Notes: generated by a model not told the origin, from the sequence alone. A stretch of 64,000 nt of DNA from Psammoneis japonica (GCA_008632985.1 QPGO01000074.1:62001-126000), one strand, 5' to 3'; shown: positions 1 through 61,780, numbered from the stretch's first letter. Numbers and translations are program-made.

Positions 1-930
1 GTCACCAAGCTCGCACAGCTCAAATTTGCTGGTCACAATCAGGACAAGCCTGCCCAAGGCATCACCCTCTTCCAATTTGGGATCACTGCACCAGACAGCG
101 CCGAACAGATTGCCTGCCACAAGGCCATGCATGTGCACATTCATGGCGGCACTGCGGCCCCGTCCCTCCAGGACACTCAAATCCTGGAAGCTCCAGACAA
201 GGCGCTCATGGCAACGACAATGCAAGCCGCCCAGCAGTCACACGATGGATGCCATCTGGTGCTTTCTGCTTTGCTTGGGGCCAACCATCCAGTCGTCCAG
301 TGGCTCACCCGTCAACGTCAAGACATGGACCGGTGCACCAATGAATTGGCAGTGCAGGCCACTTGGCACCCAAACCTTCCGGCGGACTTTCAACGCTGTG
401 CGCAGATTGAAGTTCGCCATTGGTTCAAGGCTCAAGAAGCCTCACTCCACCCGTCACCATTCGCACCCTTCAACGTTGTGTTTGAAGCAGCTAAAGGAAT
501 CATCCACTGGCGTCCGCATTTGCCTGCCAACACGCAAGCTGCCAACCCCAGTTCTGTGCTGGGGGCCGCACCGGCTCCAGCATCTCAACGCCAACCTGCC
601 AACAACACGGCCCCTGCCAGCCAAGCTGCAGGAAGCAACAGCGCAGCCCGCAATCCCTCCTGCGACAACCGCTTTGCCACGCTCCGTGACCGCCCCAACG
701 TCAGGTCACGTGATGTCAAAAACTGATGTGCAAGGGACAACATCGACCTCCCCAAAGATGCCCAAGGTCGCCCTCGTTGCTTCCCCTGCCATTGCAAAGG
801 GCAATGCAACACCAACTGTGGCTTGTCCCATGATCATCGCAATGACCACACAGAAGACGAGCAGGCCACCCTTCTCACCTGGGGTGAGGAGAACTGGAAG
901 ACCGAACAGGTCTTTGGCAACGGCCCAAGT
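1..930 (+). mobile_element. Degenerate gag-like ORF end, probably from a tyrosine-recombinase (DIRS/Ngaro-type) retroelement
   Basis: ORF 127-726 followed by a Cys/His knuckle (CFPCHCKGQCNTNCGLSHDH...EQATLLTWGEENW, ~779-900). TpA nearly absent, CpG retained. Family call is by resemblance only. Confidence 0.4.
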
Positions 931-980
931 TCGGGGACTTGGAGCCAAGAGCCTTCACCCATCACACATGGCATGAGACC

Positions 981-3502
981 ATGATGGCAGCTGGGACGAC
1001 CAAAAGTGATGAGTGGCTTGCTCCAATCAAGGGTCGTCTTCAAGAAACAGCAGGAGGAGACAAGTGGGAGGAGGAGCGTTGGACAGATTTCATTGAGGAA
1101 GCATTGTGGTCCCTGCACGAGAATGATGTCGTTGACGGAGACACGATTCGCACCGCCGAGGGCCTTGTCAAGTGCGGAGTACGAACCAAGAAGCATCTGA
1201 TTGCAATGGCCGGAAAGCCTCCCGACGATGAAAAATTGTCGAGAAAGCTTGAGGCGAAAGGCGTGTCTCTCATCATCTGTGCCATGTTGTTCAATGAGCA
1301 CGTCCATGTGAATCGAGATGGAAAGTCTGACTGCTGGCATTGTGCATGTTGAACATGAGTCAAACATGCTGAACTGTTGCTTGCACTTCTGTCCCAAACT
1401 AATGCTTCTTGTCAGTGGTGCAAGAAAACATGTTTCGTTGTTAGATGATTTTATTCAACCTTTCTCATTTTCAATTTTGGTTTGTTCTTAGACTTTCATG
1501 TCGAAGGCTCATCGAGTGCTGTTGAGGGACTCACACTTGAGCCCAAGCAAGAGCTCCATGATCCGACCAAGGATCGCAGCACAACATCTGTGCCAGATTT
1601 TTTCACGCCCACAAAGAGCAACAAGCCCAGGGACATGTTGCTGAATCGCCTTTTGGAATTAGAAGGAAAAGGAGATGGAAAACAAACACCTGATGTCGCT
1701 CCCTTTCTTGCCATTGTTCAATCGAGTGGTTGCGGGAAGACCCGATCAGTTCTGGAGCTAGCTGAGGAACAAAGAGTTGTGCACTTGCTTTGTTCTAACA
1801 TCAAGGGAGGTCTGCACTCTCCAAAGGTTGTCACTGATTTTATCAAAAACATCAAAAAGGCCGGTGCAACCGAATTTCGTGAACGACGAGCTGCCACATT
1901 TCTTCAATGTGTCAAGAAGTGCTCCGGCAAGTGCAATGCAGGACAAGAGTTGTTCTCCGCTCAATTTGAGGACGGGAGATTCGCCAATTTCTACGACGAG
2001 CTTGCAAAAGTTTATGAAGAAAACCGCACCCCTCCCACTTCCCCCGTGCAGAATGGATGCTTGGATTTGAAAAATGGCTCGTCCTCTTCCGACCGAGAGA
2101 ATTTGCCATTGGTTGTTGTGTTCGACGAGGCATTGGGTCTGACAGAATCTGATGCGCTCAACTGCAACTCGCCCTGTCGGTGCATCCGTTGGCTCCTACG
2201 TTTGAATGATTTGATCGGGCTGTTCCTCGACACTTCGGGAAAGCTGCATCATTTTGCACCGGAAAATTCCTCATCGGATGGAATCGCGGGAATTGGCAAC
2301 TTCGCAGGACCTGTGTTTGAGACAGACACTTTCGACCAGTTAAAAGATCACCTTTTCTTTCTTGGTCGTCCTTTGTGGAAAATGCAATGGGAGCATCATT
2401 TGGACAAAGACTGTGGAAAGTTGGTTGAACATGCGAGCAGCAAATTGATTCCAAGCGAAACCAAAGGTGAGGATGCAAGTTGGTTGTGCGTCCCTTTTGT
2501 TTGTCGATTTGGGTTGGAACTGAAAAAGTCTCTAGCGGAAAAGATGGTTGCCGACCACATGGCAATGCTGGTGAAAGTGAGCGAAGACTGCTCAACTGTT
2601 GTCACAAAGTACAAGTCGGAACCAATTCTTGCGGAAGCTGCAGCACGCATTGCTTGTTGCGAGAAATGTGAAGGCATTACAGTGAAAAGTGTGCTGAGAA
2701 ATGTAAGCGCAAATCTAGAAAACAGCATTTTGAAATGTGATGTTGGGGATCGCGGAGAAGTCGCCACTGCTGCTTGGCTTGGTTTCACTCTTGATGGCAT
2801 CCGCATGACCAAGAATTGCAACGTGGAAACGCACAATCTGTCACGTGAGGTTGACGTGTTTCAGTTCCTTAAAGTCTTAGCGCCAGATTTGTCGATGTTG
2901 CCTTATGAACATCAACTGCAGGGATGGAAGATAAACTTCACACATTTCAATCGGTTGAGCTTTACGCCCGATCGGAGCATGCTTGAAACTTGCTGGGATC
3001 GTCATGCAGCATTGCACTTGCCGGTGAAGAAGGCATTGGCATGTTGATCGCTTTGTTCAAGGAAGACACTGCGTGAAACTTTGAGGAATTTGCAACTCTG
3101 CGAGTGCAAGTCAAGAATTGCAAAAACAACTTGAGTGAGATGGCTTTGAACGACCTGTTTCAGAAGCTGGATGTTCGGCGCTGCTCCCCTCGAACCAAGC
3201 TTGCTGATGAACCTTTTTCAGTTGCCTTGGTCATTCAAGTTGGTGAAGGGGACACAGTCAATTTATGCAAACTTGCTCAACTTGGAAGAATGACTCGCAC
3301 CAGTGTGCGTCACAGCCAAAGTGTCCAACTGCAGTTGGCCTGCACTGTGTCTGGAGATTGTTGCAAAGAAATTCAGATGGTGGCAGGCAAATCCATGGAC
3401 AACAAGGACTTCATTAACTCGTCACACTCATTTCAAAATGGCAAATTTCCATGGCTCATAGATGAGCAGTTTCATGATGTCTCAACGGTCAACTCACCAT
3501 GA
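981..3502 (+). pseudogene. CR/Crinkler-like effector pseudogene (header exon + P-loop NTPase + PD-(D/E)XK-like nuclease)
   Basis: Exon 1 (981-1320) is paralogous to 7294-7633. Donor GT is mutated to GA at 1321. A phase-1 acceptor ttcttag lies at 1491. Motifs: Walker A QSSGCGKT, Walker B VVVFDEA, GDRGE and QVKN. Frameshift near 3024 and in-frame TGA near 3074. Confidence 0.7.
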
Positions 3503-4296
3503 AAAAGCAAGTGATTGCAGTGTTTGTTGCTGACAATCATCCTTTGCATTCAGAACGCGGTCCAGAAGGGTGTCTTCAATCACATCAAGCTGCATCTTCA
3601 CAAGTGAATGACCCTGATCAATGTTCCAATCAAATCCCGTGATCAAGCGATTGGCTGTTCTCGTGTTTCCATCAACCCCAGTGTCTCACTGTCGACCCAT
3701 TCAAGCTTGTGTTTTTTGTCTGTGAAACTGGATTTCTCAGTTGCATTTTTTGAAGTGCCTTGTGATGAAGACAAATCCTCAGCATTCATTTCCCAACATT
3801 GGAGTGCTGTGTCCTTGCTCTTTGCACAACACTTTCTGGGTCTGGTTGTCCCACTCAGAATCCCCCATGCCAAGTTCAAGCTTCTTTTTGAGATGAGACT
3901 GGATTGTTGACAACTTCTTCACCATGGAATTTTGCACAACCTGTCCAGCCCAATGCTTCTGCAAGTCAAGTCATGGACACAACAAAGACAAGACTGCCTT
4001 TGTCCACACACTGTTGCAAGCACCATGTTTGCCACTGTCATGAATGGTCAACAAGAAGACTGGGTGACACCCACAATTGACTCTCTTTCCCAATTTCTTG
4101 AGCATGAATGAGTGCGCAAGTGATTTTCAAGGGGATGCTTTTGCAGAGCCCTTTCATCTCTGCATGGAATCAACCATGGAAAACAAGTGCACATCTGACT
4201 GGGCTGCTTTTTGTTGTGGGAGAAGTGGCCTGTTCCAGCTCCAGGTGATGTGCTGAGGTGCACGACCCATCCTTTGCCAATTTTTGCATTTGGTGA

Positions 4297-4428
4297 TTTG
4301 GTGCAATGAACTCCTTCAAAATTGATTTTCTCCAAAATCAAAGGGCAAGTGCACACAAAACTTTTTTTGTGCACACTGACCTTTCAATTTTCAAAAGAAT
4401 CAAATTTGAAGGAGTTCATTGTGCCAAA
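4297..4428. repeat. ~65-bp-arm imperfect inverted repeat (hairpin)
   Basis: tttggtgcaatgaactccttcaaaattgatt...gtgcacacaaaa pairs with ttttgtgcacac...aatcaaatttgaaggagttcattgtgccaaa. Confidence 0.8.
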
Positions 4429-4767
4429 GGTGATTTTTGGCCAGTGTCCCATTTTGCGTGAAAAGTGCTTTCTGTGTGCATGCTTTTTTTCATTTTTTGG
4501 AGGTCATGTTTTTGGTCTGCTTCAACTCAACTGACATCCAAGAACATCCCCTGTTTCCGCAGATGCCAGACAATTGATTTCACTGAGCATGCCATGAAAT
4601 GATGTCCTCTTGTTGATTTCTCATCCATCTCATCCACCATCCCTCAGCACACATTTTTCACTCAAATCTTCAATGCATTGTGGTGAAGAAGAGGAAGCAA
4701 GCTGGTGTTGGCCATCGACACAAGTCAGGAACTGGCAACAGCAAAAACAAAAAAGTCATCATGAGGG

Positions 4768-5100
4768 GCTGTCCTTTCCAAGACAACCTGCCCCCTCTCA
4801 AATCAATGCTGAGGGAGTGGCAGCCACTCCCTCCAACCTCATTGCTGGCAATGCTGCCATCACTCCCTCCATTGCTCTCACCGACCAAATTCCTGTCAAC
4901 CTGAACACCCCTCCACAGAAGGCCCCACTTGTTGTGAAGGGTTGTCCTTTTCCAAGGCAACCTGCCCCCTCCCAAATCAATGCCAAAGGAGTGGCGGCCA
5001 CTCCCTTTAACCTCGCCTCTGACAATGCCACAGCCACTCCCTCCACTGCTTCTGCCAGCCAAACTCCTGTGAATCTGAACCCCTCCACAGAGCGCCCCAC
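4768..5100 (+). repeat. Two diverged tandem copies of a ~175-bp unit
   Basis: The ORF repeats PFPRQPAPSQINAxGVAATPxNL...PVNLN twice (~4770 and ~4945). Confidence 0.75.
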
Positions 5101-7293
5101 CTGCATGCAATCATCCAAATGCCTTTGATGCAACCTGCAAAGATCCCCAGCATGTGGGGTTGGCGCACAATCCAAACCACACAAAGCCGTTGGACCTGGG
5201 CTGGGACTCTCATTGGTGCATGGAGACAGCAAATTTGTGCATGAGTGCTGCCGTTTTTTCTCTCAGTCCAGATGGAAAGCCTGCTTCTAGCCTGCTTTTG
5301 AACAGGCATGTTGTTGCAGATTCTGCCACAGACAGCTGCTTGGCTGAAATTGATTGTCAGCTCCAACATGCCAAGCACACAGGTGACCACTTTGAAAACA
5401 CTGATTTTGTTTTCCCAGATGGCAATGGGCTGGTTCCTTCTGCCCGACTTGTTGTTCGAAGACCGACACCCAGAATCATTTTTCATGCACCACATGGCTG
5501 CTTTGGCTTGTGACAATTCACTTGATTGTGGTTGCTCTGTGTGTTGTTCATTTGACATGCATTTTCTTCTGGCAACTCCCTTTGTGTGTTGTTGTGCCCA
5601 TTGGCGATGCTTGTTTTGTCTCTCTTGACAACTCTCATGTTGTCTTGCTTGCTTCTCCATCCCCGTCCAGCAACATGCACAAAAGGAAGCACCTGTGCAA
5701 CCTGAGCTGTTGTGAGTCTTGTGTCACCCCAAAAGAAGCATTGGAGGTGTCCCCATTTGCTGGCACAGAGAATTTTAAGGATTGGTTCAAACACCTCAGT
5801 TGTGAATCTTTTTCTCATTGCTTTTCCTGGGAAGCCACGTGCAGTGATGTTGCAAAGGCGCGGGCCAATCTCAAAAACAACTGCCCATCTTCAGACATGT
5901 GGTGGCATCTCTCATCCTCAGAGCACCTGTGTGACATCTGGTTCATGAAACTTTGCCAGAAATGTCCTGCCATGATCACCTTGAAAACACAAAAAAATGT
6001 GTTCTCGTCCAAAGAGAAGCCATCCACTTGATCGTGCAGGATTTGGTTTGTTGCTGAACATGCTTCCCAAGGGACATTGGGTGTGCAGGAGACACAAGAT
6101 GGTCACACCTGCCAATTCAGATTCTTGCCCTCAATGCAGATTTTCCAAATCGTGCCTGTTGCGCCAATCTTTGCTTCACAAAAGGAAGTGTGCAGACACA
6201 GACGATTCAGCCATGCAAGTGCATGTGTTGCTCAACAACAGAAAATCCAATGATGATCCCACCGAGCTGGAACCCGGTGTGCAGCCTCCATGCTCTCCCC
6301 AAGGAAATGCAACCAACCTCTTCAGGTGCACCGATTTTGACGACGTTCGTGCTTTGGTCAAGGAAAGGACTGCTCTCGCTTTGCACAAAACCCAGCTGCA
6401 CCTCCAGGTGACCTCTCAGATGAACAAACAGCAAAAGAAAAGAGCTGTGAGTTCTGGAACAGCTTTGGTTTGGAGGGGTTGCTGACCAAGACACATGACG
6501 CGGATGCGTCCCTGGGTGGGCTTGCCCCCATTGTGCCTGAGAATTTGGACAGCACAAGTGCTGCTTGCGTCAAACGTCGCCTTCTTTCTTTGGAAGATCC
6601 TCCAGAGTTTGTGAAAATGTGGCAGCATGAGTTGTCCATTTGGAGAAACCTGAAACAAGCACGTGCGTGGGTTGGTGGCTGAAGAAAGCAATCCACGGCC
6701 ACCAGACCGACGCTGCGTTCGAGCGCCTCCTCGCTCACGAGAGCTTCCGCGGGACGCGCCTGTCACGTGCCATCAAAGGGACAATGAATGCATGCCCAGC
6801 ACATTCAACCACATCTCTCTGTTTTGGTCCATGCTCCAGTGTTCCATGATGGCAAACAAACAACTTCATCTCCTCCAATTCTCTGAAAAAAGGCGACACT
6901 TCATGCCCAAACACAACCAGCCTCACATCTGCTTCACCTGTCAGGGCAGAAAAAATCACCTGTTCACAAAAAATTGCAGGAGATAAAGTTGATTGCGTGT
7001 CACTGTGTGACACTAGAGCATGAAGTAAAATAGAGAGCCATGATCGAATGCCGGTTGCCATCAATGATGCCCTAACACGTTGCTTCGTGTTGCCTCCGTA
7101 CGGTGTTGTTGTACGGCGCTGCTCGTACCGCGTGCAAGTCCTTCTACAGTACGCACGCAGATTGCTGCTACTCACGGACGTGGAATTTTTAATCAGATTA
7201 TTCGGAAAAAACTGGCCTTGCGCTCGGCGCGCGATCCGAGATACCATAGAGAGAATAATAGAGACAGCCGCAAGCACACTGCACACTGAGACC

Positions 7294-9881: not shown

Positions 9882-10339
9882 CTTTCTCTCTCGAGGCACT
9901 ACGGGCATCGTCGCACGTGTTTACGGCAGTGATGGTTCGACGAAACAAGCTCGTTTGAATGCCTCAGTACCCTTGATGGTGTCCGTTGTCTGTGGCAACT
10001 GGCAACGTGTCTTATTCAACTGAAACTTCTGCCCCGGTGTAACTCGCTGACTGCTTTTTTGGGACTTTTACCTTCCGCTTGGGATCCCACACAGCAGCTG
10101 CTTTAGTTTGTACAATTTTGGGGCGTGGGCGACTCGGTAAAGTAGTTTATGCGAAAGCTTCATCCAAGGATGATAGGAGTGCGAATCCTGGAATGGCACC
10201 GGCACCTAGCTAGACTCGAACATAGTAGAGATCCAACTCATCAAAATGCACTAAATGATGTATGTTGAAATCCACTACTTTATATCCCATCTATCCCTGC
10301 CAATTCACTGGATGGCACTTTTCGTCACCATCACAGCAC

Positions 10340-10490
10340 CCTGTACAACAGTCGCAAGTGTTGATTGGATTGGATTTTCTTCAGGGACCGCAATCTGCTG
10401 AGCAGGCGAATTTCGGAGGGGACTTGCCCTTCAAACTCATTTATGTGAATCCATGCGATGTACAATTCACTCAGTTCTGACAGCTCCATT
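10340..10490 (-). pseudogene. Leucine-rich-repeat gene fragment
   Basis: LSELYIAWIHINEFEGQVPSEIRLLSRL resembles the NxFxGxIPSEIGLLxxL LRR. No full ORF. Confidence 0.45.
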
Positions 10491-10519
10491 GCAGAAAGAC
10501 AATTTTGGAGCAATCACCT

Positions 10520-11790
10520 GACGATTGCCCTCTGTCCTCTGTCACTCGTTCTCATCTTCTCTTGTGGCTGATGATGCACTCCCTGCAGAGCTCTGTCTCT
10601 GGTTGGTTGTGGTGCAAGCCACAAGGAACCAGACCTTGAGCAGGATCTTGCATCTTGGAGGAGCCCAGAGATGCAGAGCTCCAGCAGGAGAGCTCTCTCT
10701 GCTCATTGACAAGTGAAGTGCCATTGATGAAAAGAAGAAGTGAGCTGCCAGCTGGTGGAGAAGTGGCTTTGAACCAAGTGCAGAGTCAAAGAGTCTGTTG
10801 AGAATGGAAGGAGGCAGGGAAGCAGCTGCAACAGTGGAAGAGTGGCAGGGATGCATGATGCAGCATGTGGTGGGAGGCAGATGAGTCAGTGTGAAGGAAG
10901 GAGGCAAAGCAAACAAGAGCATCATGGAAAGATGGTGTGCTGGGCTGTGCCCAAGCACTTGAATGGCCCATTGAGATGGAGAGGCTGAATCATGCATCAC
11001 TGGAAAGGTGGTTCAAGGCAAAATCAGCAGAAGGAAGAAGGGTGGATGGAGAGGTCAGAGCATAGAGAAAGGTGCAGTGGAGAGTGTCAGAGTTGCAGAG
11101 GTCAGAGGAGGAGGACCAAAAAGGCTTGTTGGGCTGCCTGACAGCAGGTGGAGGAAAGCAAAGAGCCAAAGAGAAATTGATGGCCAAAGAAGCCAAGGCC
11201 GCCAAGGTGATCTCAACAGTGAATGGGAGAAGGAAGATGCCATTGTCATTGAGCAAGGCAATTGTGAGGTGTCCATCAGCAGAAGTGGCAGAGGGTCCAA
11301 GAAACTTCATTCTCGTCACACTTGAGTGGTGTGCCTCAGTTAAAACAGGGGAGGAGGGAGTGGGCAGACCAGGAGGAGGGGGGAAAGGAGCTTGGGGAAC
11401 AGCAACATCAATGGCAACACTGTGGTGGTGGGAGGGAGCTGAGAAAGAGAAGCAGGAGGTGGTGCAGAAATGCTGATGCTGCCAGGGCAGACAGAAGTGG
11501 GCAGGTGGGAACTGGGTTTGCACAGGCTCAAGGTGAGTGTTGTGAGAGGAGTGACAGAGCTTGGTTGTGAGGGTGTTCTGGAGTCTTGCACAGCAGGCCT
11601 CAGTGTGCACATGGCATCTGACATGGTGTGGAAGCATGTCACAAGTGAAAACCCCTGTGCAAGCATGGGGGCACACTGCACTTTTGATGAGATTTCGAGC
11701 AAATTCTGTTGCATCATGTGGAGTTTGGTGTGCTGTCACTCATCAGACACCAGTGATGGTTGGGGCTCAGTCAACCATTGTGTGATGTGA
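10520..11790 (-). mobile_element. Degenerate 3' part of a non-LTR retrotransposon (restriction-like endonuclease type)
   Basis: ORF 10990-11739 contains SVAIDVAVP and LLPFTV motifs, the latter followed in an adjacent frame by DHLGGLG. TpA-depleted. Confidence 0.35.
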
Positions 11791-12340
11791 TGTTGGAGGG
11801 AAACTTGACAATCAGAGTGGGGGACAATTTGCCCGGGGGGGGGCAATCGAATGGGGGCAATCAAACAATTTGGGCAAGCCTTTGATTTTCAATGTGGGTT
11901 TTGGGTTTGTTGCATTTGGGGCTCGGCCGCATCACAATGAATGAAGTGACACCCACGTGCTCAATTTTTATTTTGGTTCCTCTGAGGAGCCCAGAAATGC
12001 AGAGCTCCAGCAGGAGAGCTCTCTGCTCATTGAGAAGTGAAGTGCCATTGATGAAAAGAAGAAGTGAGCCACCAGCTGGTGGAGAAGTGGCTTTGAACTA
12101 AGTGCAGAGTTAAAGAGCCTGTTGAGAATGGAAGAAGGCAGGGAAGCAGCTGCAGCAGTGGAATGGTGGCAGGGACGCATGATGCAGCATGTGGGGCATT
12201 TGGCAGAAGGGACAGGAGATGAGTCAGTGTGAAGGGAGGAGGCAAAGCAAAGTGCATCATGGAAAGATGGTGGCTGGGTTGTGCCCAAGCATTTGAGTGG
12301 CACCCATTGAGATGGAGAGGCAGAATCATTCATCACTGAC
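10657..12340. repeat. Direct repeat pair ~350 bp (10657-11000 and 11984-12340)
   Basis: gaggagcccaga.atgcagagctccagcaggagagctc... aligns. Differences include gaaccaag/gaactaag and gagtcaaag/gagttaaag. Confidence 0.85.
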
Positions 12341-13820: not shown

Positions 13821-14088
13821 GACGTTTGCGACATACCGATAACGCAACGCTCCCCAACATTCAGAAGTGCCCAGTCGTACTGATAAAAGGTACAGTACAG
13901 CAACACATACCGGTACATTCCGTTGCACTATGTAGAAGTGTTGTTGTCCCGGTATTGACGAGAGTATGGAGACCGCCGAGAGCGGCATGATCGTCGCTTT
14001 GCATCATCGCGCAAAAGAGACATACCGGTAGTGTCAACGGAGACGTTAGCGGTTAGCGTGTGCGGGGGGCGTGGGTGTTTCGTTCGTG

Positions 14089-14283
14089 AGTCGTCGTGTC
14101 GTGACGTGTCGTGTCGTGTCGTGTCGTGTCGTGTCTTGTCGTGTCGTGTCGTGTCGTGTCTTGTCGTGTCGTGTCGTGTCGTGTCTTGTCGTGTCGTGTC
14201 GTGTCGTGTCTTGTCTTGTCTTGTCGTGTCGTGTCGTGTCGTGTCGTGTCTTGTCGTGTCGTGTCGTGTCGTGTCTTGTCGTA
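14089..14283 (+). repeat. (GTCGT/GTCTT)n pentanucleotide microsatellite (CGACA on minus strand)
   Basis: Read directly from the sequence. Confidence 0.95.
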
Positions 14284-16330: not shown

Positions 16331-16414
16331 CATGCTTTCTTTCTGTGTTTTCTTGGAGTTGCAGGAGTGGAGCTGGGTGCTTGACATCTTGCACCACACA
16401 CCAGCATCCACATT

Positions 16415-22804: not shown

Positions 22805-22855
22805 ATCAAGTAGCTCGAGCAAGATTATACACGTTCATAAACATTTACTACACTT

Positions 22856-30020: not shown

Positions 30021-30029
30021 CCCCCCCTC

Positions 30030-31750: not shown

Positions 31751-31802
31751 AAGGAGGCGGTGTGATCTAAGCTGAGGGAGTCTCAGCTGTGAAGAATCGT
31801 CA

Positions 31803-48804: not shown

Positions 48805-48853
48805 AATTAGATCTACCTTTCACAGTGTACGTTCCGTCTAACTTGTGTTTGAG

Positions 48854-50069
48854 TCACGCCTCACAAAATCCCACAACTACATCTGTAGCTACCTTGCCAA
48901 CGACATCCATTTTGTAACCTCCTTCCTGGATAAACACGGTTGGGATATCGCGAATCGTTCGGCCAATCGTTTGGCCCACTTTAGAAAAGTCATCACCGAT
49001 GAGCTTGAAGCCGGCTCGTCGAATGCTCACTTCGTCTCCTTCGTGCGTATCGAGACCTAGCGATACCACCAGCGCCTTTGCTCCAAAGTCAACAATTCTG
49101 TTCAAGCCCTGTTGTAATGCCACTTTGTAATCCTCCCATGTGGTGCCTGGAGATAGGGGCAAATGTAACGTAGTACCGACGCCGTCACCCGCTCCAGTTT
49201 GATCCGAGAAGCCACTATGAAACGGATAATCAAAGTCAGGGTCGCAGTGCAGTGAAACCACTAAAACAGTCGGATCCTCGTAAAAGATGGATGCTGTCCC
49301 ATTCCCACAGTGATAGTCTTCAATGTAACACAATGTATGAAAAAAGACTGTTGAGTAAGACTTCCAAATTACTTGTTTCTCAAGCCAGCCTTGTTCGACA
49401 CGTACCGACATCTAGAATTGCCACCTTGGAGCCGCCACCTAGCCGCGATTGAAGGCTCCGGGCGGCATAGGCTGCATGATTGATATAGCAGTATCCCCCA
49501 AAGCTATCATGAGCTGCATGGTGTCCAGGATGAGTTGTCACAGCATAACATGCACGTGATTGAAAGGATTCATGAACGGCTAAATTCACCACGGCCGCAT
49601 CCCACGTTAACTCCTCCTTTAAACGAGCAACAATCGGAGTGCACAAATCGGTGCAAAAATAAGCCACCTTTCCCATAACATTTTTGCTTGGACGTTGATG
49701 AGGACATCGAGGAAGCGGAACATTCAGCGGAACCAGTGGCGGAGGCACTCCCGGTGTGGTCTCTCGCAAGGCACAATCCGGATCTCTTCCGTCTCCAAGA
49801 TCTTCCCATTCTTTCCAGGCGGTCGTCAGAAACGCAAGCAGCCCTTTACTATGCACTGAATCATAATCGCGAATGGCGCCTGCTTGTGAACATGGTGGTG
49901 TCACGAATTTCACATTTGCTTGCGTTTGCCGTTGTCGCAAATGTTGCAAAATGAGTGCGCGACGATGCCGTGGGTGATTGTGAGTGTCGTTTGCATCCGC
50001 GTCCTTGTCGACCGAATCTAGAGGCTCCTCCGACTCAGAGGCACTCCTCGATACAACCACCAACTCCAT
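48854..50069 (-). CDS. Histone deacetylase superfamily / acetylpolyamine amidohydrolase-like protein (intron 49318-49405)
   Basis: PGHHA, GGYCYIN, spliced ILDVDYHCGNGT, VSLGLDT, QEGGY. Confidence 0.88.
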
Positions 50070-52277
50070 GTGCAGTTACGGTACAGTATCGAGGGTTGAT
50101 GTGGAAGCAGTGCTCCTCTGCCGCCGTACGTATTGCGCATCGAAAGGTCGCTGAAAAAGTGAGCACAAACGGACCCGTAGGATTCTACGTCTATGTACCA
50201 CGATATCTGTCCGTGACCCGGGTTGCGTCGCGATGATGATTAGATTATTCGCGATTGATTCGCGATCGATGGTCGATGGCGACGCGATACAGTACAGTGT
50301 ATGGGGAGAGGGGAGAGCGCAGAATGGAGAAAGGAGTTGAGGTACAGTATTGTGAAAATTGGCTCATCTTCGCTGGGAAAGACAGCACGGACACGGCCAA
50401 CTTGTATACCGGAGAGTAGCCAGACAAGTTCGTTCGCCCACTTCGTTAAGCATGTCGGCGAAAAAGGCACCTTGGGTCAAACGGCGTCAGTAGGGCCTAG
50501 TAAAAATTGGCCGGCAGTAGGGAAGCACACCGGTCTTAGCAGTGTTAGGAAGGGTTTCGGTTAAGCACGAAACTGGAGTCGTTTCCCTTTGAGCGTTTGT
50601 CAATGCCATGGGCAAAGGCTTTCATAGATTGTTGCTCTCACTTTTTCAAAAAAAAAAAAAAAAAGCCCGGAGAATAGTCTTGAGTCTAGGCTTTTCCCTG
50701 TTGTCATGACATTTAGTTCTCTTGGATTTGTGAGGGCGGCGTTCGCCATGCCCATGTCATACGATCCGTCCGCACTTCATAGCTCAAAAAGTTTTTGACA
50801 GAGATATCCGGAGCTCAGCCATCCATCCATCACGATCACGATCTTCACGATGTGTGAGTGCCAAAGTTTTGAATTGATTGTGTGTTACTAATGTATTGAG
50901 AACATTTATGGGATCAAGTGGCCGACGAACTGCAAATAGAAAGAGAATCAAAGAGGTACAGCACACTGCACAAAGGCTCCGGACAATACACACGATTGAA
51001 TCCTCTTAATCGTTTCTTCATCGTTCCATTGCCGTTTCGAGTCACTCTTTTTGATGTCGTCATAAGGGTCGTAGTCACACAAATCCACGCTGCAGGTCAA
51101 AAGGAATAATCGATGCTTTGGGAAGGAACCACCTACGGCCCAAACACCCCAAAACGCACGACCGCCCAATCCGGCCGAAAACGTCTTTGTCTCGGAGAAT
51201 CAACTCGCCGCTAGCATGAGAGTGTGAAATGGAGTCGTCTGGAACTGGTTTGAATAAAATCCGACCAATATTGCCTGTGTTGTGATCGATTCATCTTGGG
51301 GTGTAAGCGAGCATTCCGATGTGACGTAGGCAGAAAAGGTCGTCGATCAAGTCTTGACACCTTTGTTGACACCCGTTCTCATCCACTCCCGGCTCAAAAA
51401 TCAAAAAGCAAGATCAAACAACACCCAAAAAAGAGAAATCAAAGAACAAAGTAAGTGACATCGTGCAATCATCATTCTATCATCTCCACATGCACTGGGG
51501 GTGATGCACTGGGGGTGTAGGGGAACGCACGGGAAGGCGCCAGAGAGTTTTTGTTGACTCGGTCGGGCGCCGTCATCTTGCTTCCCATCGAAATCGCGAG
51601 TGTTCGACAACAAACCATCCACACCCCACCTTGTACTGTACTGTCCAATGCTTCAAGGAGGCCATGAACTCCTCACAATTGTCGGCAGTGGCCTTTTCCG
51701 GCCATGGTTGCCGCGGGCAGGTGTGGCGGGGAGCTTCTCAGGTTGAAGGTGGTGTTCGCTTGGGGTTCTCATCGTGACTGAAAATTGACACTCGTGACTC
51801 GTTCGGAGCTTCTCTTTTGAGATTCCGATCGAATGACTCGATCGACTCCCTTATCAAGCACGACATACACGCACGAACCACGACCCACGACCACCGATGT
51901 ATGACCACCACTGAGCACAGAGCACACCGTTGACCGTGACGAGTAAAGAGTGATGAATGAGCGCCGGCAGAAACATGGGTCATCACATGCACTTGGAACC
52001 ACAGCGTTGTGACTGTCATCCAGAGTCCACTCTGAGTATGATTTAACCTGCAGAGCATTGGTTCTTTTGTACGAGCACACATCGGATGCACGAGCGCCAA
52101 CCATACCACACATCACCCCCGCCGTCCTATCGTTCACTCGTTCATCAGCACTATGACAGTGCCGCTTGTCCAAAACAACAACATGCGACAATTCAATGCT
52201 AACACTGACCGTCGTTTCATTGTTTCGATTAATACAAGAGCAATATCACGGAAACTTGATTCGAACCCACCAACGAT

Positions 52278-54647: not shown

Positions 54648-54815
54648 CTATGCCTTTACGTAAATCACGCTCAAATTGTTGGCAGGCATTTCAACGGTTT
54701 CTTGGAGTGTCAAGCCACAAGCCGATGCTTCTTGGACAACCTGCTCCAGATCCCGCTTGCCCCAACTCGGGTCTCTCATTCGAAGACTCTTGTCAAAGTT
54801 TCTGTCCAAAAATGA
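54648..54815 (-). pseudogene. C-terminal fragment of a DUF938/METTL26-like methyltransferase
   Basis: NFDKSLRMRDPSWGKRDLEQVVQEASACGLTLQETVEMPANNLSV; the N-terminal part is missing. Confidence 0.7.
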
Positions 54816-55012
54816 GACTGTCCGAAAATGAGACGAGGAATGGACTTGTGAGACTGACCCAAATCCAAATTGTTTGCCAAAGACAGTCTCCAGAGAGAGA
54901 AAGAGACCCATGGCAATGGTTCCCATATGCAGCATGACTTACAAATTAGACTCGACAGCCGTCCCGTGAACCTTGTGGCTTGCAGGGTCCATGACAATGC
55001 AAGACACCTCCA

Positions 55013-58000
55013 CCCTAGAATTGCCACCTTGGCGCCACCACCTGGCTGCGATTGAAGGCTCCGGGCTGCATGGGCTGCATGGCCAATGATGTGGCAGTTT
55101 TCCCCAAAGCCGCTGTCATGAGCTGCATGATGTCCAGGATGAGTTGTCACAGCATAACATGCACGTGATTGAAAGGATTCATGGACGGCTAAACTCACCA
55201 TGGCCGCATCCCATGTTGACTCCTCTTTTAAGCAAGCAACAATCAGAGCTGCATGGTTGACACAGCAGTGTCCCCTGAAGCTGTCATGAGCTGCATGATG
55301 TCCCAGATGAGTTGTCACAGCATGACATGCACGTGATTGAAAGGATTCATGGACGGCTGCATTCACCACGGCCGCATCCCACGTTAACTCCTCCTTTGAA
55401 CAAGCAACAATTGGAGTGCACAAATCTGTGCAAAAACAAGCCACCTTTCCCATGACATTTTTGATTGGACACTGATGAGGACATCAAGGAAGTGGAACAT
55501 TCAGCAGAACCAATGGCGGAGGCTGTTGGAAAGTGTGCATCAAAAGCACAAACACAGAAATTGGACAGCATGCACCAGCCCAATGTGCTCCACATGAAGC
55601 ACCAGAGCTGCCAATGAAGCAGTCATCATTCTCTTTTAACTCTTAGAAAGCATTGCAATGACAAGCTTGTCCATTCTGCCCTCAGGATCAGCCTTGGAGG
55701 ACTGAAGCAGCCCTGAGACAGCTGCCAGAAGGGTGAATCTCAGCAGTTGAAAGAGAATGAACCAGCTGAGAGCTGCAAAAGTGAGAAAGAAGAAAAGAGA
55801 GTCATTCTTGCCAAGTGAGAGACATTTTCCTGCTTTTCCAATCCAACTTGAGTGGAAGAGGCAGAGGCAGAGGTGGCAACAGGAGCCATGGAAAAGGACC
55901 CTCTGGAAGAGGAAACAGGGGTGGCAAGCAGAGCCACAAGAGCATTGAAGACTGCGTCTGCTGCATTGGAAATGCCAAGCAAGCATCTGATTTTCAGATT
56001 GCAACTGAGTTCATCATCAACTGCACAAAGAAAACCTGTGAATTTGGAAATGATGTGGCAACTGCACTCAGCACTTACACTCCATGTGACATGAGTTCCA
56101 AGAAGCCAACTTTGCAGGTCAGCTCAACAGGAGATGACAAGATTGATGTGGCACTGAACAAGCAGTGTGAAATTGAACTCAAGACCAAATTTGATGCCCA
56201 CATTAAAAGGACTCAGATGCATGAGAACACCTTGATTAAGGCTTGTGCTCTGCTCTGGGAAAGGTGCTCCAAGGCCATGAAGAACAAGATTCAAGCAAGG
56301 AATGAATTCCAAACCAAGATTGAGAACAACTCCATTGAATTGCTCAAGACCATCAAGGAGCATGCATTGAATCATCAAGAGCACAGATGCGACATGGCCA
56401 TCATCTCAGATTCTATGAGGGCTGTGTTGGAAACCAAGCAAAAGGAAAAGGAGAGTCTGCAAGATTGCACCAAGCAATTCAGGGTTGCAAGAGACGTCAT
56501 GAAGTCTCACATCAGGGGACCAATTGTCCTCACCAAGATGGCAGAGGGCATGTTGGATTGTGATGAGTCCATGCAGACACTGTCAAGAAGTGTCAAGAGA
56601 AGGCATTCAGCCAGCTGATGGGTTTCATGCACTTGGAGATTGCAGATCAACGGAAGCACAGATCAATTGTCACTTCTCACAGGAATGAACACTCAACAGT
56701 TGCTCAAGAACAACCAGCATCCCAAGTCCATTGCAGAAGCCAACATGGTGTTGAGAAACCACACCTTTGATTGTGTCAAACAGCCAACAGGAACAGGAAC
56801 AATCAAAACAACAACTCTGATTCCAAGAAACAAGAAGAAAATCAAGAAATCACCCTGTCTTTTGCTCAGATGGAAGGCAGGTGTGCTGCTGTTGTGGAAA
56901 GGCAGGACACAAGTCCACCAATTGCAGGGAGAGAGGCTCAAGAGCTCAATCAGAATGGTCCATCAACAAGGCCAAGGCCAAAGAAGAAACAAGCACTGTT
57001 CAAGCAGCTGATGATGCCACCAGTGCTGCAACCATTGGGACCAAGTCTACAGTTTCTGGATGGGCTGGCACTCATGTTGATGCATCTCTCCACCAAGGAC
57101 AGTCTGATGACATGAGAGACTGGATTTTGTTGGACAATCAGTCCACAACCACCATCTTCTGCAACAAGAAGCCAGTCGCAGACATTTGTCTGTCTGATGA
57201 AGTCATGAGATTGCACACACACAGAGGAGTGCTGATCACGACTCACAAGGCCACTGTGCCTGGATTTGGTGAGACCTGGTTTAATCCAGATGCAATCACC
57301 AACATTTTTGCTCATTCCAACATGAAGAAGAAGCACAGGATCATGTGTGATTCCTCCCAAGACAATGCATTCACCGTTCATCTGCCCCACAAGAAGGTCA
57401 AGTTCAAGGAGGATGCAAGTGGGCTGCATGTCTACAAGCCCAAAATCCAAGACATCGGAGCTCAGCTCCAATTCACACAGAGCATTGAGGAGAACAAGAA
57501 GTTCTGCACTCCATGCCAATTTGAGCAAGCCAAAGAGCTTGAGAATTGTTGCACGTGTTGGGAAACCCAACCATGAACGATCTGAAGGCCATCATTTGCG
57601 TGAAGTGACAGCATCAAGAAAACAATCCTGTTACAACCAAGGACTTGGATTTGGCTGAGAAGATCTTTGGACCAGACATTGGAAGCCTGAAAGGCAAGGT
57701 CACCAGGTGAAAGCCAGAGCCAGTTGTGGAAGACTGCGTTGAGATCCCAAAGGAGCTCATTGCGGCTCAGCACAAAGTCACTCTTTGCCTGGATGGACTC
57801 AAGGTGAATGGATTGTCATTCCTCACCACAGCGTCATGAACATTTTTTATTGCACTGCACAGCTGCTGAAGGATTTAACCCAAGCAACCCATCAGGAAGC
57901 TCTGGAAGGTGTGCTGCAAGTCTAGAACAAGGCCAATTTAAAGGTCACGCGCATTCATTGCAACAACAAGTTCAGGCCCATTGGAAATGCACTTGAAGAC

Positions 58001-61000
58001 AAGTTCAATCTTAAGATGAACTGCACTCATGCTCAGGAGCATGTCCCAGAAGCCAAGCAGAACAACCGAGTCATTCAAGAACATGCCAGGGCAGTCTGTC
58101 ATCAACTGCCATTCAAGCATCTTCCAAAGCTCATGGTGGAAGTCATGGTCACTGAGGCTGCTGAGAAAGTCATTATTTTCCAGCCAAGCAAGGTGTTTCA
58201 AAGCATTGCAGTCCAAGAATGATTCTCCATCAAAAGAATCTAGACTGTGACAAGAGCTGCAAAATCACATTTGGCACTCATGTGCAAGCTCACAATGACC
58301 CGGATCCCAAGAACACCCAAGAGTCACGGACCTTGGATGGCATTTGTTTGCACCCAACCAACAGCAACCAGATTGGACATGAGTTGCTGCACTTGCACAC
58401 TGGCAAAAAGATCACCCGTTGCCAGGTCACCCCTGTGCCCATCACTGCAGCCTTCATCATTTGGCTGAAATGAACAAAAGATGCCCAACAGTCTCAAGAT
58501 TGAGAACCGCACTGGAATTGTCATGCGCAACAGTGCTTGGATTGCAGGAGTGAATTATGATGAAGATCATTCAAAGATGAAGACTGCAATCTAGAAGAAG
58601 ACACTAAAGCAAGGGACAAGGAAGACAACAAGGAAGGCAACACAGACTGGGGAGACTCCAAAAGAGGAGTCAGCCAACAAGAGCTGCAAGGAACAATCCA
58701 AGATCAAGAGTTGGATGAAGAAGCCAGCTGCATCAGCGAGGAGCAAGATGAAACTCAAGACAAAGCATCCCAACAAGAAGAGCATCTTGGAGACAATGAC
58801 AAAGAAGGTTCCCAATCATTGGAAGGAAGTGGAGTCTCCCAAGAAATTGATGACATGATTGAACACATCAATGAACTGCAGAATCAAGAGCAGGAATTCT
58901 CTCCAGAAGTGCAAGAGCTCACTGCCAAAATGCAAGAGCCAGAATCCAAAGACGAGTCTGGAGACAAACAGAGTGAAACTGAAGAGAGTGTTGAAGAAGA
59001 GCCTCTTGCCAAGTCAAGGACAGGAAGAACTCTCAAACCTCCAGTGAGATTTGATGATTGCCGGTGTCATTTACAGACTCAGGCTCACTTGCAAGTCAAA
59101 GAGTGCAGCTTGGAAATGGCCAGGATTGTGGCCATGACAATGTGCCAATGGAATGAAAAGATCAGTGCAATCACCGCTGTTGAGGAAGCACATGAATTCA
59201 TTCAAACTTGCAGCTTGGCATGAGGACTCCAGAAGGTTGGAGAAGAAGGCCACAAGTCGGCCACATCAGAGCTGCAGCAGATCCATGATGGAGCAGTTTT
59301 CAAGCCCATTCACATCAAGGACATATGACTCCTCTGGAGAGGAAGAGGGCCATGGAGAGCCTCATGTTTCTCACAGAGAAAAGAGATGTGGACAAATCAA
59401 GTCCAGATTGTGTGCAAACGGAAGCACGCAATGAGAGCGCATGGACCAAGACAAAACTGCCAGTCCACAGCATCCACTGAGTCCATTCTCATCACAGGAG
59501 TGATTGATGCCAAGCAAGGCCAAGACGTCATGACAGCAGACATTCCCAATGCATTTGTGCAGATGGACATTGAGGTCAAGGAAGAGAAGATCATCACGAA
59601 GATTTGTGGAAGGATGGTGGACATTTTGCTGGAATTAGATCCTGAAACTCGTCAGGACCATGTTGTGTGCAAAGGCAAGCACAAGGTCCTCTGCGTTGAA
59701 ATGTTGAAGGCACTCTGTGGAGTGTTGGTGTCTTCCACATTCTTTGTTGCAAGAAGTTCTGTCAAGACATCAAAGGAATTGGATTGAGATAATCCGCATG
59801 ATCCATGTGTGGCCACCGCACTGTGAATGGCAAAAAGCACACTGTGACATTGCATGTGAACGATTTGAAGTTGAGCCACATTGACAGCAAAGTCAACAAT
59901 GAGTTTAAGATTTGGCTTGACAAAACTTGTGCAGACAAGATTGGAAAGGTCAAAGTGATGTGTGGAAAGAGGCATGATTGCTTGGCCATGATTCTAGATT
60001 ACAACATTCCAGGAATGCTGCAAGTGGACATGGTGCTTTACATTTAAGGCGTGATCAGGGACTTTCCGGAAGAATTGTCTGTGACATGGATTGCCCATGG
60101 AACAAGAAGCTCAACAAGGTGGACAAGAAGAGCCAGAAGTTGGACCTCAAAGGTGCTCAAACATTTTGCACTTTTGTGATGAAGGGCATGTTTCTTTGCA
60201 AGAGAGCCAGACAGGACATCCAGCCTGGCATTTCTTTTCTCACCACTGGAGTCAAAGAACCAAATGAATTGGATTGGATGAAGCTGGTGAGGGCCATGAA
60301 TTTCCTCAAGAAAACCCAGCATGAGATTGCAGCCACATCTGCTGGAGACAAAGTCATCATCAAGTGGCATGTTGATGCCTCCTTTGCAGTTCACCCAGAC
60401 TGCAAAAGCCACACTGGAGCAACGATGACTCTTGGAAAAGGTGTCATTGCATCTGTCAGCATGAAGCAGAAGATCAACACCAGGAGTTCCACCAAAGCAG
60501 AAATCATTGCAGGAGACAATGTTGTGTCAAAGGTCCTTTGGACCAAGCTGTTTGTTGAAGCCCAAGGTTTTCCAGTCAAGCACAACATCATGCATCGTGA
60601 CAACCAGAGTTGCATGAAATTAGAAGAAAACGGAAAAGCCAGTTCAGGCAAACGCACAAGACACTTCAACATCAAGTGTTTTTACATCACCAATCTCATC
60701 AAGCATGGAGAACTTGAGATTAAGTTCTGCCCAACAGACAAGATGATTGGAGATCACATGACCAAGCCTGTGGTTGGCAAGAAGCTCATTGTTGATCGTC
60801 AAACTGTCATGAACATTCAAGTGCCTGAGATGGGCAAACACACTTGGAAGTGCAAAAAATCTTGTCATTGGTCAGCAGGAGCATGTTGGAAAGTGTGTGT
60901 CAAAAGCACAAACACAGAAATTAGACAGAGTGAAGAAGACACATGTGCCAGCGCTGATGTGCTCTACGTGAAGCAAGAGAACTGCCAATGGAACAGCTGC

Positions 61001-61780
61001 TGTGTTCTCTTTTGACTCTTGGAAAGCATTGAAATGACAAGCTTGTCCATTTTGCCCTCAGGATCAGCCTTTGAGGACTGAAGCAGCCCTGAGACAGCTG
61101 TCAGAAGGGTGAATCTCAACAGAGGCACTCCAGGTGCGGTCTCTTGCAAGGCACAATCCGGATCTCTTCCGTCTCCAAGATCTTCCCATTCTTTCCAGGC
61201 GGTCGTCAGAAACGCAAGCAGCCCTTTGCCATGCACCAACTGACAATCGCCAATGGTGCCTGCTTGTGAACATGTTGGTGTCATGAATTTCACTTTTGAT
61301 TGCGTTTGCCATTGCCGCAAATGTTGCAAAATGAGTGCGCGACCACGCCTTGGGGGTGATTGTGACAGTCGTTTGCATCTGAGATTGTGAGAGTCGTTTG
61401 CACCCGAGTGTCGACGGAATCAAGAGGCTCCTCCACCTCAGAGGCACTCCTCGACACAACCACCAACTCCACATGTCCCGGTAGCTACAGCACCGAGGGT
61501 CGATGTTAAGAGCAGTGCTCCTCTGCTGCCGCATTGCGGCTCTGCGGTAAAATGCCATTGAAAAAGTGAGCACAAAAGGTGGGATTCTACAGTGCAGTAC
61601 ACACTGTAGGCAAGTACCACACGGTATCTGTCCGTGACCCGGGTTGCATCGCGAAAATAGCGATCGACGTACCCAGTACTATGGTACTTGAGGGGGTGAA
61701 CGGTGAACGCAGAAAGCAGAAAGGAGTTGAGTTATTGTGAAGCTCATCTTCGCTGGGAAAGACGACACGGACGCGGCCAA
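55013..61780 (-). pseudogene. Duplicate of the HDAC gene 5' part and upstream region (49411-50400), split by the copia insertion, with an internal ~170-bp tandem duplication
   Basis: 55013-55523 and 61122-61780 align to 49411-49746 and 49742-50400. Confidence 0.9.
55524..61121 (+). mobile_element. Full-length degenerate Ty1/copia (CoDi-type) LTR retrotransposon; LTRs 55524-55745 and 60884-61121; 5-bp TSD GAGGC
   Basis: TG...CA LTRs; GAGGC at 55519-55523 and 61122-61126, single in the intact gene at 49742. Gag knuckle CCCCGKAGHKSTNC, protease WILLDNQST, integrase EHVPEA, RT ADIPNAF/HVNDL, RNase H VDASF/DNQS/TKP. Many stops and frameshifts. Confidence 0.95.

Follow-up and report, generated by a model that had tools for sequence, protein, structure and literature searches.

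The question raised by a 64,000-nucleotide stretch of the diatom Psammoneis japonica (GCA_008632985.1 QPGO01000074.1:62001-126000; the whole stretch is called the window here, and positions count from its first nucleotide) is why the dinucleotide TpA has nearly disappeared from five long domains and persists in the gene islands between them. A reading made from the sequence alone had proposed that TpA in transposon-rich chromatin is hypermutated to TpG or CpA, and had likened this to a reversed form of repeat-induced point mutation (RIP), a process of Neurospora and other fungi. Through analysis of base composition, polarised duplicates, a Ty1/copia long terminal repeat (LTR) retrotransposon in the fifth domain and its relatives, we found that the core of that proposal, a separate TpA-directed A:T-to-G:C process in transposon chromatin, is supported by polarity, flank and rate data alike, with a mobile origin verified for one of the five domains. 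The resemblance to RIP proved to be the weaker part of the proposal.

Directional loss of TpA

We computed observed/expected (O/E) ratios for TpA, TG, CA and CpG in sliding 1-kb windows and called domains at a threshold of at most three TA per 300 bp (Table 1). Within the five domains TpA O/E fell to 0.00-0.19, compared with 0.31-0.77 between them, and TG and CA reached 1.35-2.26. The domains total 37,672 bp with 168 TpA (4.5/kb), the islands 26,328 bp with 944 (35.9/kb); at island density 1,351 TpA would be expected in the domains (Poisson P = 0 at machine precision). Both TG (106.6/kb in domains versus 71.8/kb in islands) and CA (107.1/kb versus 73.0/kb) are enriched, and the domain edges are sharp, at less than about 100 bp. 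The scan confirmed the depletion first noticed by a model from the sequence, and our segmentation recovered the same five TpA-poor, TG/CA-rich domains with edges no more than about 560 bp from those proposed (the largest gap being 14030 versus 14590). Among stop-type trinucleotides on both strands of the domains, TGA occurs 1,894 times, TAA 159 times and TAG 87 times; with TAA and TAG nearly gone, every frame carries long spurious open reading frames (ORFs). The domains are poor in CpG as well (19.5/kb versus 61.0/kb in the islands), a loss that had been given no emphasis, but unevenly so: CpG O/E was 0.74-0.87 at positions 1001-3000, where TpA O/E was 0.12-0.19, and 0.57-0.68 at 32001-33000, with TpA O/E spanning 0.03-0.19 over the two intervals together.

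The direction of change was examined in three duplicate pairs, each with one copy in normal DNA and the other in a TA-poor domain (839 aligned nt). Nineteen of the 21 TpA dinucleotides of the normal copies were CA (10) or TG (9) in the domain copies; there were no reverse changes, every TpA of the poor copy pairing with a TpA. By comparison, CpG had become TG or CA at 13 of 51 sites and AA had become GA at 5 of 63, and dinucleotides overlapping neither TA nor CG were 83-96% kept. All 15 of the lowest-ranked tetramers contain TA.

The coding sequence of the copia element gave a second view of polarity. An alignment of 30 intact full-length relatives gave 650 columns in which at least 80% agree. 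Tyr is the conserved residue in 35 of these, and there the window copy has Tyr at only 3; Cys stands at 14 (all TGC or TGT), His at 10 (all CAC or CAT) and another residue at 8, so that 24 of the 35 now read TGY or CAY (Y, pyrimidine). Other conserved residue classes are 62-92% retained with the exception of Arg (51%), whose losses are mostly to Gln, Cys and His, matching the prediction for CpG decay. Tyr makes up 2.6-5.2% of residues in 120 copia relatives versus 0.58% in the 345-aa ORF of the window. Since one of the normal duplicate copies belongs to a histone deacetylase (HDAC) gene that is functional and conserved, the duplicate and Tyr data show that TA is ancestral and TG/CA derived. 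The TA-to-TG/CA changes reported earlier for internal duplicate pairs are thereby borne out, their polarity is one of loss in the domains and not of TA gain in the islands, and the substitution spectrum of the transposon copy against its relatives, with Tyr columns turned to Cys and His, agrees.

Change at these sites also appears to be continuing. Run X1 is a public run from a single study, possibly made from the source sample of the assembly; its contigs cover 24001-44000 at about 99.9% identity, with 1-6 differences in each of eight listed pieces of 1-4 kb. Because X1 reproduces the TA-less sequence, the pattern is not peculiar to this assembly, although X1 may share the assembly's sample. 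Between 25.7 and 42.4 kb, 15 fixed differences separate the window from X1: 4 are TA versus TG/CA, 10 are CG versus TG/CA and 1 is of another kind. The TA changes amount to 4 at 48 remaining TpA, compared with 1 at about 15,000 sites other than pyrimidine-purine (YR) steps, and the excess over these non-YR sites is marked for both TA (Fisher P 6e-10) and CG (4e-17). All 14 YR differences fit a change of TA or CG to TG or CA in one lineage or the other, showing that TA and CG sites are still turning over between near-identical genomes.

Flank rule, action in place and recurrence

We expressed TpA survival as domain density relative to island density in each NTAN context. Survival was highest in TTAA (0.78), followed by CTAA/TTAG (0.32), CTAG (0.19), ATAA (0.135), GTAA (0.13) and CTAC (0.13), and was lowest in ATAG (0.05), GTAC (0.026), ATAT (0.022) and ATAC/GTAT (0.004; 1 versus 157), a flank effect of about 200-fold. 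These values fit two independent half-sites, in which a 5' purine (R) favours the change and a 5' T protects. When 77 environmental copia loci (335 kb) served as the baseline, the ranking was unchanged, from TTAA at 0.34 to ATAC at 0.004, and the class distribution differed from that baseline with a chi-square P of 9e-29. The survival values firmly support a tetranucleotide rule in which RTAY is hit far more than mixed contexts, and these more than YTAR. The half-site model further predicts TA to CA after a 5' purine and TA to TG before a 3' pyrimidine; 29 of 42 unambiguous events agreed (P 0.0098), as did all four of the most recent ones (window versus X1), suggesting a tendency for the direction of change to follow the flank.

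The decay of CpG obeys other rules. Transitions of CG to TG or CA are present in the TA-poor domains, and CpG methylation of transposons is known for some diatoms, according to the accessible text of a paper on diatom DNA methyltransferases. CpG survival, however, ranged only from 0.22 to 0.63 by flank and followed no RTAY-type (RYRY) rule, RCGY being the best retained, and these differing flank rules led us to reject one mechanism for both losses. The ratio of the two rates (k_TA/k_CG) was 5.8 in the polarised pairs and 9.6 in a metagenome contig (L039, below), so that TpA decays 6 to 10 times as fast as CpG, and the two losses can be separated. On both counts, flank dependence and rate, the earlier claim of a process distinct from the decay of 5-methylcytosine (5mC) stands.

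Several observations indicate that the changes arose in resident DNA. The two LTRs of one element are identical at insertion; those of the window element now show three TG-versus-CA double mismatches plus sites of TA versus TG/CA. In the large internal duplication of domain 4, 31 dinucleotides with TG/CA double mismatches account for 62 of the 145 mismatched sites in the first 1,010-nt block. Such double mismatches are best read as ancestral YpR steps that were resolved independently in each copy after duplication or insertion.

The copia element is inserted in a partial duplicate of the HDAC gene (49412-50400 matching 55015-55523 plus 61122-61780), and this arrangement reveals how the affected region is bounded. 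In the right-hand fragment, TpA is converted from the LTR edge at 61122 to about 61580, whereas farther along the same duplicate, at 61588-61780, six of seven TpA are retained, including some in GTAC, ATAC and GTAT contexts. In the two informative duplications, the un-mutated partner (7287-7687 in one, the HDAC gene in the other) has kept its TpA. Given that the change stops inside a duplicate and that the HDAC copy is spared, the process is not bounded by homology length, and the HDAC duplicate likewise displays the independence from copy number and homology described for the chlorarachniophyte Bigelowiella natans (see below). Instead, the boundary behaves like that of a chromatin domain spreading about 460 bp past the element. 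The domains as a whole are discrete and sharp edged; a mobile origin is shown for one (copia), and the other four contain repeats. We also considered strand-coordinated bursts, which were rejected because the number of runs of TG or CA outcomes along the DNA was near expectation in two of three tests (21 versus 21.5 expected; 15 versus 12.7 expected). The lack of coordinated runs argues for independent, site-by-site events on both strands and not for processive action on one. With the HDAC copy and the outer duplicate untouched and no such runs, the term "reverse RIP" is misleading.

The signature is not confined to the window. When 317 retrieved relatives were scored at the columns of conserved Tyr, Cys or His turned up there in three database proteins from other copia lineages, which share 28-48% identity with the window element: P0270 has 1 Tyr, 4 Cys and 5 His at 12 columns, P0293 has 2, 8 and 3 at 14, and P0346 has 1, 3 and 2 at 10. 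All three may come from organisms other than that of the window. The HVDD motif of these proteins was considered as a mutated YVDD box, but this was rejected, His being native in 30 of 30 intact relatives. A clearer case is the metagenome contig L039, which has no RTAY and five YTAR, a TpA O/E of 0.25, and His or Cys at five of six Tyr columns. Measured against the unanimous sites of three 85-90% identical relatives from the same metagenome with normal TpA, 11 of 17 TpA had become CA (8) or TG (3), and 22 of 25 CpG were kept. The signature thus appears again in a different element family and a different data set. One relative of this contig (L061), with normal TpA overall, has TG or CA at 4 of 16 TpA when compared with its own two relatives, which may reflect either the TpA process at an early stage or ordinary divergence.

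Contents of the domains and islands

The element in domain 5 has the TG...CA termini, 5-bp target-site duplication and collinear polyprotein of a Ty1/copia retrotransposon, with LTRs of about 240 bp. A tblastn search with intact diatom relatives found the polyprotein collinear over residues 1-1622 of P0003, with several frameshifts. The relatives carry Pfam PF07727, and all six named eukaryotic labels among them are diatoms (Fragilaria crotonensis twice, Nitzschia inconspicua twice, Nitzschia sp. Nitz4 and Attheya sp.). One further protein (P0172), a Ty1/copia RNase H fragment, carries the label of a bacterial metagenome-assembled genome (Culicoidibacterales), probably through eukaryotic contamination of the bacterial bin. 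At the reverse transcriptase box, near 59.7 kb, the window copy reads HVND; this copia lineage natively has HVDD, not YxDD.

Table 1. Positions of the domains, the copia element, the HDAC copies and other features of the window
Feature	Position	Strand	Remarks
TA-poor domain 1	1..7031		33 TpA; CpG only mildly lowered at 1001-3000
TA-poor domain 2	10293..13502		12 TpA; content without assigned identity
TA-poor domain 3	14030..17881		30 TpA; content without assigned identity
TA-poor domain 4	25711..42402		48 TpA in 16.7 kb; begins about 200 bp upstream of the threonyl-tRNA synthetase ORF (ORF ends at 25497)
TA-poor domain 5	54662..61548		45 TpA; copia element and flanking HDAC pseudogene fragments
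Outer edge of hypermutated domain 5	61580..61588		About 460 bp outside the LTR, inside the duplicated segment
Ty1/copia LTR retrotransposon remnant, full length	55524..61121	+	Collinear polyprotein, LTRs, target-site duplication
5' LTR	55524..55762	+	Starts with TG
3' LTR	60880..61121	+	Ends with CA
Target-site duplication GAGGC, 5 bp	left 55519..55523, right 61122-61126	+	Single copy in HDAC gene at 49742-49746
HDAC gene	48857..50075	-	Pfam Hist_deacetyl, E 5.9e-30 and 3.3e-12; normal DNA; un-mutated reference copy
HDAC duplicate, left of insertion, hypermutated	55015..55523	+	Matches gene segment 49412-49746
HDAC duplicate, right of insertion	61122..61780	+	Matches gene segment 49742-50400
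Hypermutated segment copy	974-1377		Domain 1; duplicate of normal segment 7287-7687
P-loop ORF	1449-3044		Domain 1; host-type, few Tyr
Direct repeat	10658-11002 / 11984-12338		Domain 2; 88% identical
Inverted dispersed repeats	17331-17585 vs 33592-33850; 17820-17922 vs 41914-42020		Domains 3/4
MYND-finger ORF	31806..33104	-	Domain 4; 433 aa; nearly Tyr-free; CpG moderately reduced
Internal duplication	35219..37009 and 37730-39018	+ (first copy)	Domain 4; roughly 1.3-1.8 kb

Domains 1 to 4 carry tandem and dispersed repeats, but their content is harder to name. Pfam searches of 142 ORFs of at least 110 aa and 88 shorter ORFs returned nothing credible as a transposon or viral protein in these domains. 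Likewise, the sole matches in the window to 388 copia-family proteins (tblastn) and to a copia profile HMM (run against 1,171 six-frame ORFs) were to the element at 55.8-61.0 kb; a homology search with the ORF at 28475-29413 gave no match among 1,083 candidates, and Rfam and tRNA scans were empty. These scans found no recognisable viral protein in domains 1 to 4, and none of them was aimed at a viral origin. The blank Pfam result carries little weight, because Pfam found neither reverse transcriptase nor integrase in the verified copia element at 55524-61121 and so misses its reverse transcriptase region too. The description of the domains as rich in transposable elements is thus verified for domain 5 only, with its full-length Ty1/copia element; domains 1 to 4 have repeats and no recognisable transposon protein.

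Some of the affected DNA is of host type. The MYND-finger ORF of domain 4 is a host-type gene caught inside that domain; as a polarity pair, the two MYND ORFs of the window were too diverged, just the 68-residue finger aligning. A unit made of a small ORF and a P-loop/AAA ORF occurs twice, once in normal DNA at 7024-9878, where it is intact, and once in domain 1 at 888-3044. The two units share a 404-nt, 92%-identical segment, and the P-loop ORF of domain 1 is otherwise unalignable; the AAA-like ORFs at 1449-3044 and 7752-9878 were rejected as a polarity pair because of their divergence (E 0.22). At 36007-37340, the summed word depth of X1 contigs reaches about 49,000 and about 12,000, compared with about 60 elsewhere. 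No Rfam or tRNA match lies there, and the interval may hold a repeat of very high copy number, or else sequence that another source has in common, depth not being equal to copy number. Within 13503-14331, a short TA-normal stretch of very high CpG (O/E 1.9 at 13501-14500) separates domains 2 and 3, and an 18-copy tandem array with 10/15-nt spacing (14039-14331) comes after it.

The islands hold ordinary genes by Pfam, namely a CDPK-type kinase, threonyl-tRNA synthetase, a second kinase, a MYND-finger protein, an AAA-type ATPase and the HDAC, and the genes of the window are almost free of introns. In a contig of a further run, X2, the 221 nt at 24067-24287, bounded by GT..AG on the minus strand, are missing from within the threonyl-tRNA synthetase gene, which makes the ORFs 22859-24112 and 24244-25497 a single gene with one intron; X2, recorded as "DNA?", is probably RNA. 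Most of the TA-poor domain is not covered by X2, which carries no information on expression there. Two ORFs in normal DNA, 18326-19873 (minus strand, 516 aa) and 52260-53585 (plus strand, 442 aa), have no credible Pfam family.

Mechanism, rival explanations and known systems

The only prior report of TpA-directed A:T-to-G:C hypermutation is a 2026 preprint on one chlorarachniophyte, B. natans, in which integrated viral DNA is the target (Mettrop et al., bioRxiv 10.64898/2026.01.13.699255). According to the accessible text of that preprint, 231 of 302 nuclear point mutations in 15 mutation-accumulation lines fell in two integrated viral regions. The rate there was about 6e-7 per site per generation, some 1000 times baseline, and 230 of the 231 were A>G or T>C, all 230 at TpA; they were called de novo from Illumina data and arose episodically, in some lines only. 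The larger viral region is single copy and transcriptionally silent. Across the B. natans genome there are 124 clusters poor in TpA and rich in CpA+TpG, and reverse transcriptase and DDE domains are overrepresented among its TpA-poor coding sequences. Its authors proposed an ADAT2-like adenine deaminase (10.64898/2026.01.13.699255). For diatoms, our literature searches for TpA hypermutation found no report, and neither the stem "hypermut" nor a dinucleotide skew occurs in the accessible text of the diatom DNA-methyltransferase paper, the founding diatom copia paper or a 2025 diatom-transposon preprint. The statement of the sequence-only reading that it knew of no description in diatoms holds within these searches, but the same TpA-only change had been described in B. 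natans viral DNA.

We consider it highly probable that the five domains are the long-term footprint of region-targeted TpA hypermutation of silenced mobile or foreign DNA, together with a few hundred bp of flank, and by analogy we infer the same kind of process as in B. natans, here saturated on copia and repeats. In such a scheme, an enzyme would be recruited by marks of silent mobile chromatin and would chemically alter one base of the T:A pair in 5'-TAY-3' (equivalently 5'-RTA-3'); the altered pair would end as C:G, converting TpA to CpA or TpG. The outcome would be irreversible inactivation, with Tyr codons turned into Cys or His codons and the element made invisible to profile searches. 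That an enzyme is involved, and not passive damage or poor repair, is argued by the 200-fold flank dependence and the sharp edges. Which base it attacks cannot be told from sequence, since A>G on one strand and T>C on the other are the same change of the same base pair. Our preferred candidate is a DNA adenine deaminase with a preference for a 5' T and a 3' pyrimidine, its product hypoxanthine being read as G, although we would not quite back it against all other candidates combined; a mutagenic modification of thymine is the main alternative, and a rather less likely one. Native TadA probably prefers a UAC/YAC context, as in early adenine base editors. No candidate gene for an adenine deaminase is present in the 64-kb window. 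As for thymine, its hydroxylation in dinoflagellates and kinetoplastids may favour TpA, but a review mentions no such preference in the accessible text and describes the distribution as random. Of the two enzymes first suggested, the deaminase thus stays preferred, with the reservation that ADAT2 itself fits poorly given its published GAA context on DNA, and a Pol eta-like polymerase with its WA hotspot fits poorly, AA>GA having occurred at 5 of 63 sites versus 19 of 21 for TA.

A number of observations count against this interpretation. A verified transposon is present in just one of the five domains, and X1 comes from one study and perhaps from the same sample, so its independence is not established. 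The half-site direction is only moderately supported, L039 alone giving 5 versus 4 (5/9), and one of the three runs tests was nominally low (7 versus 11.6 expected, P 0.03; pooled duplicates, 22 sites). Outside the window, 77 of 80 environmental copia loci look ordinary and the 240 nearest database relatives all have at least 1.4% Tyr; both lists favour well-preserved copies. Seven loci (L026, L079, L011, L016, L005, L080 and L034) have a CpG O/E of 0.10-0.35 with ordinary TpA (0.47-0.77), and CpG decay without TpA decay is common in diatom-type transposons. The mutation-accumulation paper on Phaeodactylum tricornutum, in its accessible text, names CG, CC and TG as mutable with a GC>AT bias and does not flag TpA. 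Finally, the sole ADAT2 shown to act on adenine in DNA prefers 5'-GAA-3' in hairpin or single-stranded substrates (PMC10354150).

Of the rival explanations, we give most thought to a passive by-product of heterochromatin, in which poor mismatch repair or an error-prone polymerase (Pol eta WA errors, or non-canonical mismatch repair after 5mC deamination) fixes TpA mispairs. Such a by-product would account for CpG decay in the same domains and for outcomes that are site by site and symmetric on both strands, and in the spectra of mismatch-repair deficiency C>T at CpG and T>C preceded by a purine are abundant. We nevertheless think it unlikely: the specificity is too narrow, with the AA-versus-TA disparity just given and with other dinucleotides outside TA and CG (AT and GT excepted) 83-96% kept; the flank effect is about 200-fold; and TpA is lost where CpG is near intact (in L039 and at 1001-3000), so that CpG-derived mismatches are unneeded. 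The B. natans process is, moreover, episodic and roughly 1000 times baseline in the preprint's account. RIP itself, as a homology-dependent premeiotic process recognising duplicates, might be suspected because repeated DNA is affected and because diatoms have DNMT4, which is related to RID, the RIP enzyme of fungi, as stated in the accessible literature. It is hard to credit when the partners at 7287-7687 and in the HDAC gene keep their TpA, when mutation stops inside a duplicate, when two of three tests show no strand-coordinated runs, when the B. natans target is reported as single copy, and when the chemistry is A:T>G:C and not C:G>T:A.

A technical origin was also considered. Modified bases can give systematic transition miscalls on some platforms, and if A were misread as G or T as C, TA would really be present; the possible common sample of X1 and the assembly leaves room for this. 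Against it, X1 contigs show the same TA-less sequence across 20 kb, every site reads consistently as TG or as CA without strand dependence, the coding effect (Tyr to Cys/His) is coherent, an unrelated metagenome contig and database proteins carry the signature, and the B. natans mutations were reported as de novo calls from Illumina mutation-accumulation data, all of which makes an artefact very improbable. Editing of transcripts by an ADAR- or ADAT-like A-to-I enzyme, fixed by reverse transcription and reinsertion, would fit the usual behaviour of RNA adenosine deaminases, which make A-to-G changes preferentially after a 5' U (10.64898/2026.01.13.699255). But the two strands are about equally affected (Cys 14 versus His 10 on the coding strand), the LTRs diverged after insertion, HDAC flanks and host-type ORFs are mutated, and sites are polymorphic in place, and we see almost no prospect for this explanation. 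Static composition alone would also suit a low TpA native to the elements, or a gain of TA in genes. This we regard as refuted: a functional polyprotein cannot lack Tyr, of which intact relatives have the share given above, 24 of the 35 Tyr columns became TGY or CAY, and gene-derived fragments lost TpA relative to a functional gene.

Returning to region-targeted TpA hypermutation, one speculative possibility, which on balance we doubt, is that TpA editing is an old chromatin-coupled DNA-editing immunity across the SAR group (stramenopiles and rhizarians at least), with a dedicated RTAY enzyme, either a chromatin-acting DNA adenine deaminase or one that places a TpA thymine modification as a second epigenetic mark beside 5mC. 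If so, it would be one of the main ways in which diatoms permanently inactivate transposons, and the source of much unannotatable "dark" DNA. The saturated footprint of TpA-directed hypermutation in a second, ecologically dominant lineage, some members of which are transformable, suggests a widespread eukaryotic genome defence. Whatever the enzyme, its mechanism is constrained by the RTAY target and the near immunity of TTAA, by action on resident duplex DNA, on both strands and site by site, by chromatin-domain-sharp edges a few hundred bp beyond the element, and by independence from both homology and CpG decay. There is a practical side as well: hypermutated elements lose Tyr codons and TAA/TAG stops, give spurious ORFs and escape Pfam, and transposon content and gene counts are probably mis-estimated in such genomes.

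Compared with known systems, the process shares with RIP the irreversible inactivation of mobile DNA by transition hypermutation, which skews the dinucleotide composition. However, RIP changes C:G to T:A at CpA, creates TpA, is bounded by the duplication and mutates both copies, while the process seen here changes A:T to G:C at TpA, destroys TpA, is bounded by a domain edge and spares the partner copy; neither the CpA-to-TpA direction nor the duplicate-limited mutation of both copies was found. Decay of 5mC at CpG is similar in having a palindromic YpR target and TG/CA products and in being domain limited, on both strands and site by site. It differs in target and flank dependence and is slower by 6 to 10 times, and each can occur alone (TpA loss in L039, CpG loss in L026); we know of no modified base for TpA. 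Like APOBEC3 and ADAR hyper-editing in animals, the process is a deaminase-type transition hypermutation of retroelements with a 5' neighbour preference. The substrates of APOBEC3 and ADAR, however, are single-stranded cDNA or double-stranded RNA at the time of replication; their changes are strand specific, do not extend past the element and are the same in both LTRs, and none of this applies here. ADAT2/ADAT3, of the TadA family, is the sole eukaryotic family shown to deaminate adenine in DNA and, according to the B. natans preprint, the candidate there. Amphioxus BjADAT2 deaminates A in 5'-GAA-3' and C in 5'-TCG-3' in hairpin or single-stranded DNA, as the accessible text reports, compared with TAY in chromatin here (PMC10354150).

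B. natans offers the fullest likeness. In both cases A>G/T>C substitutions are restricted to TpA in discrete regions, of viral origin there and of shown mobile origin in one of five domains here, independently of copy number and homology; the long-term result is TpA-poor, CpA+TpG-rich clusters; and the rate, measured there at orders of magnitude above baseline, would be similarly raised here. The differences lie in host and target, a chlorarachniophyte with a giant virus/virophage as opposed to a diatom with a verified LTR retrotransposon and trapped host-gene fragments, and in saturation. TpA is at an O/E of 0.00-0.19 and 0.45% of dinucleotides in the domains, compared with a rho of 0.45 and 3.3% reported for the nucleocytoplasmic large DNA virus region of B. 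natans, and it makes up 3.6% of dinucleotides in the window's islands versus a reported 6.0% in the B. natans nuclear genome. The terms "diatom", "CpG", "trinucleotide" and "flanking" are absent from the main text of that preprint (10.64898/2026.01.13.699255), and four points appear new by comparison: the RTAY-over-YTAR rule, an edge about 460 bp outside the element, the divergence of LTRs in situ, and the co-location with CpG decay.

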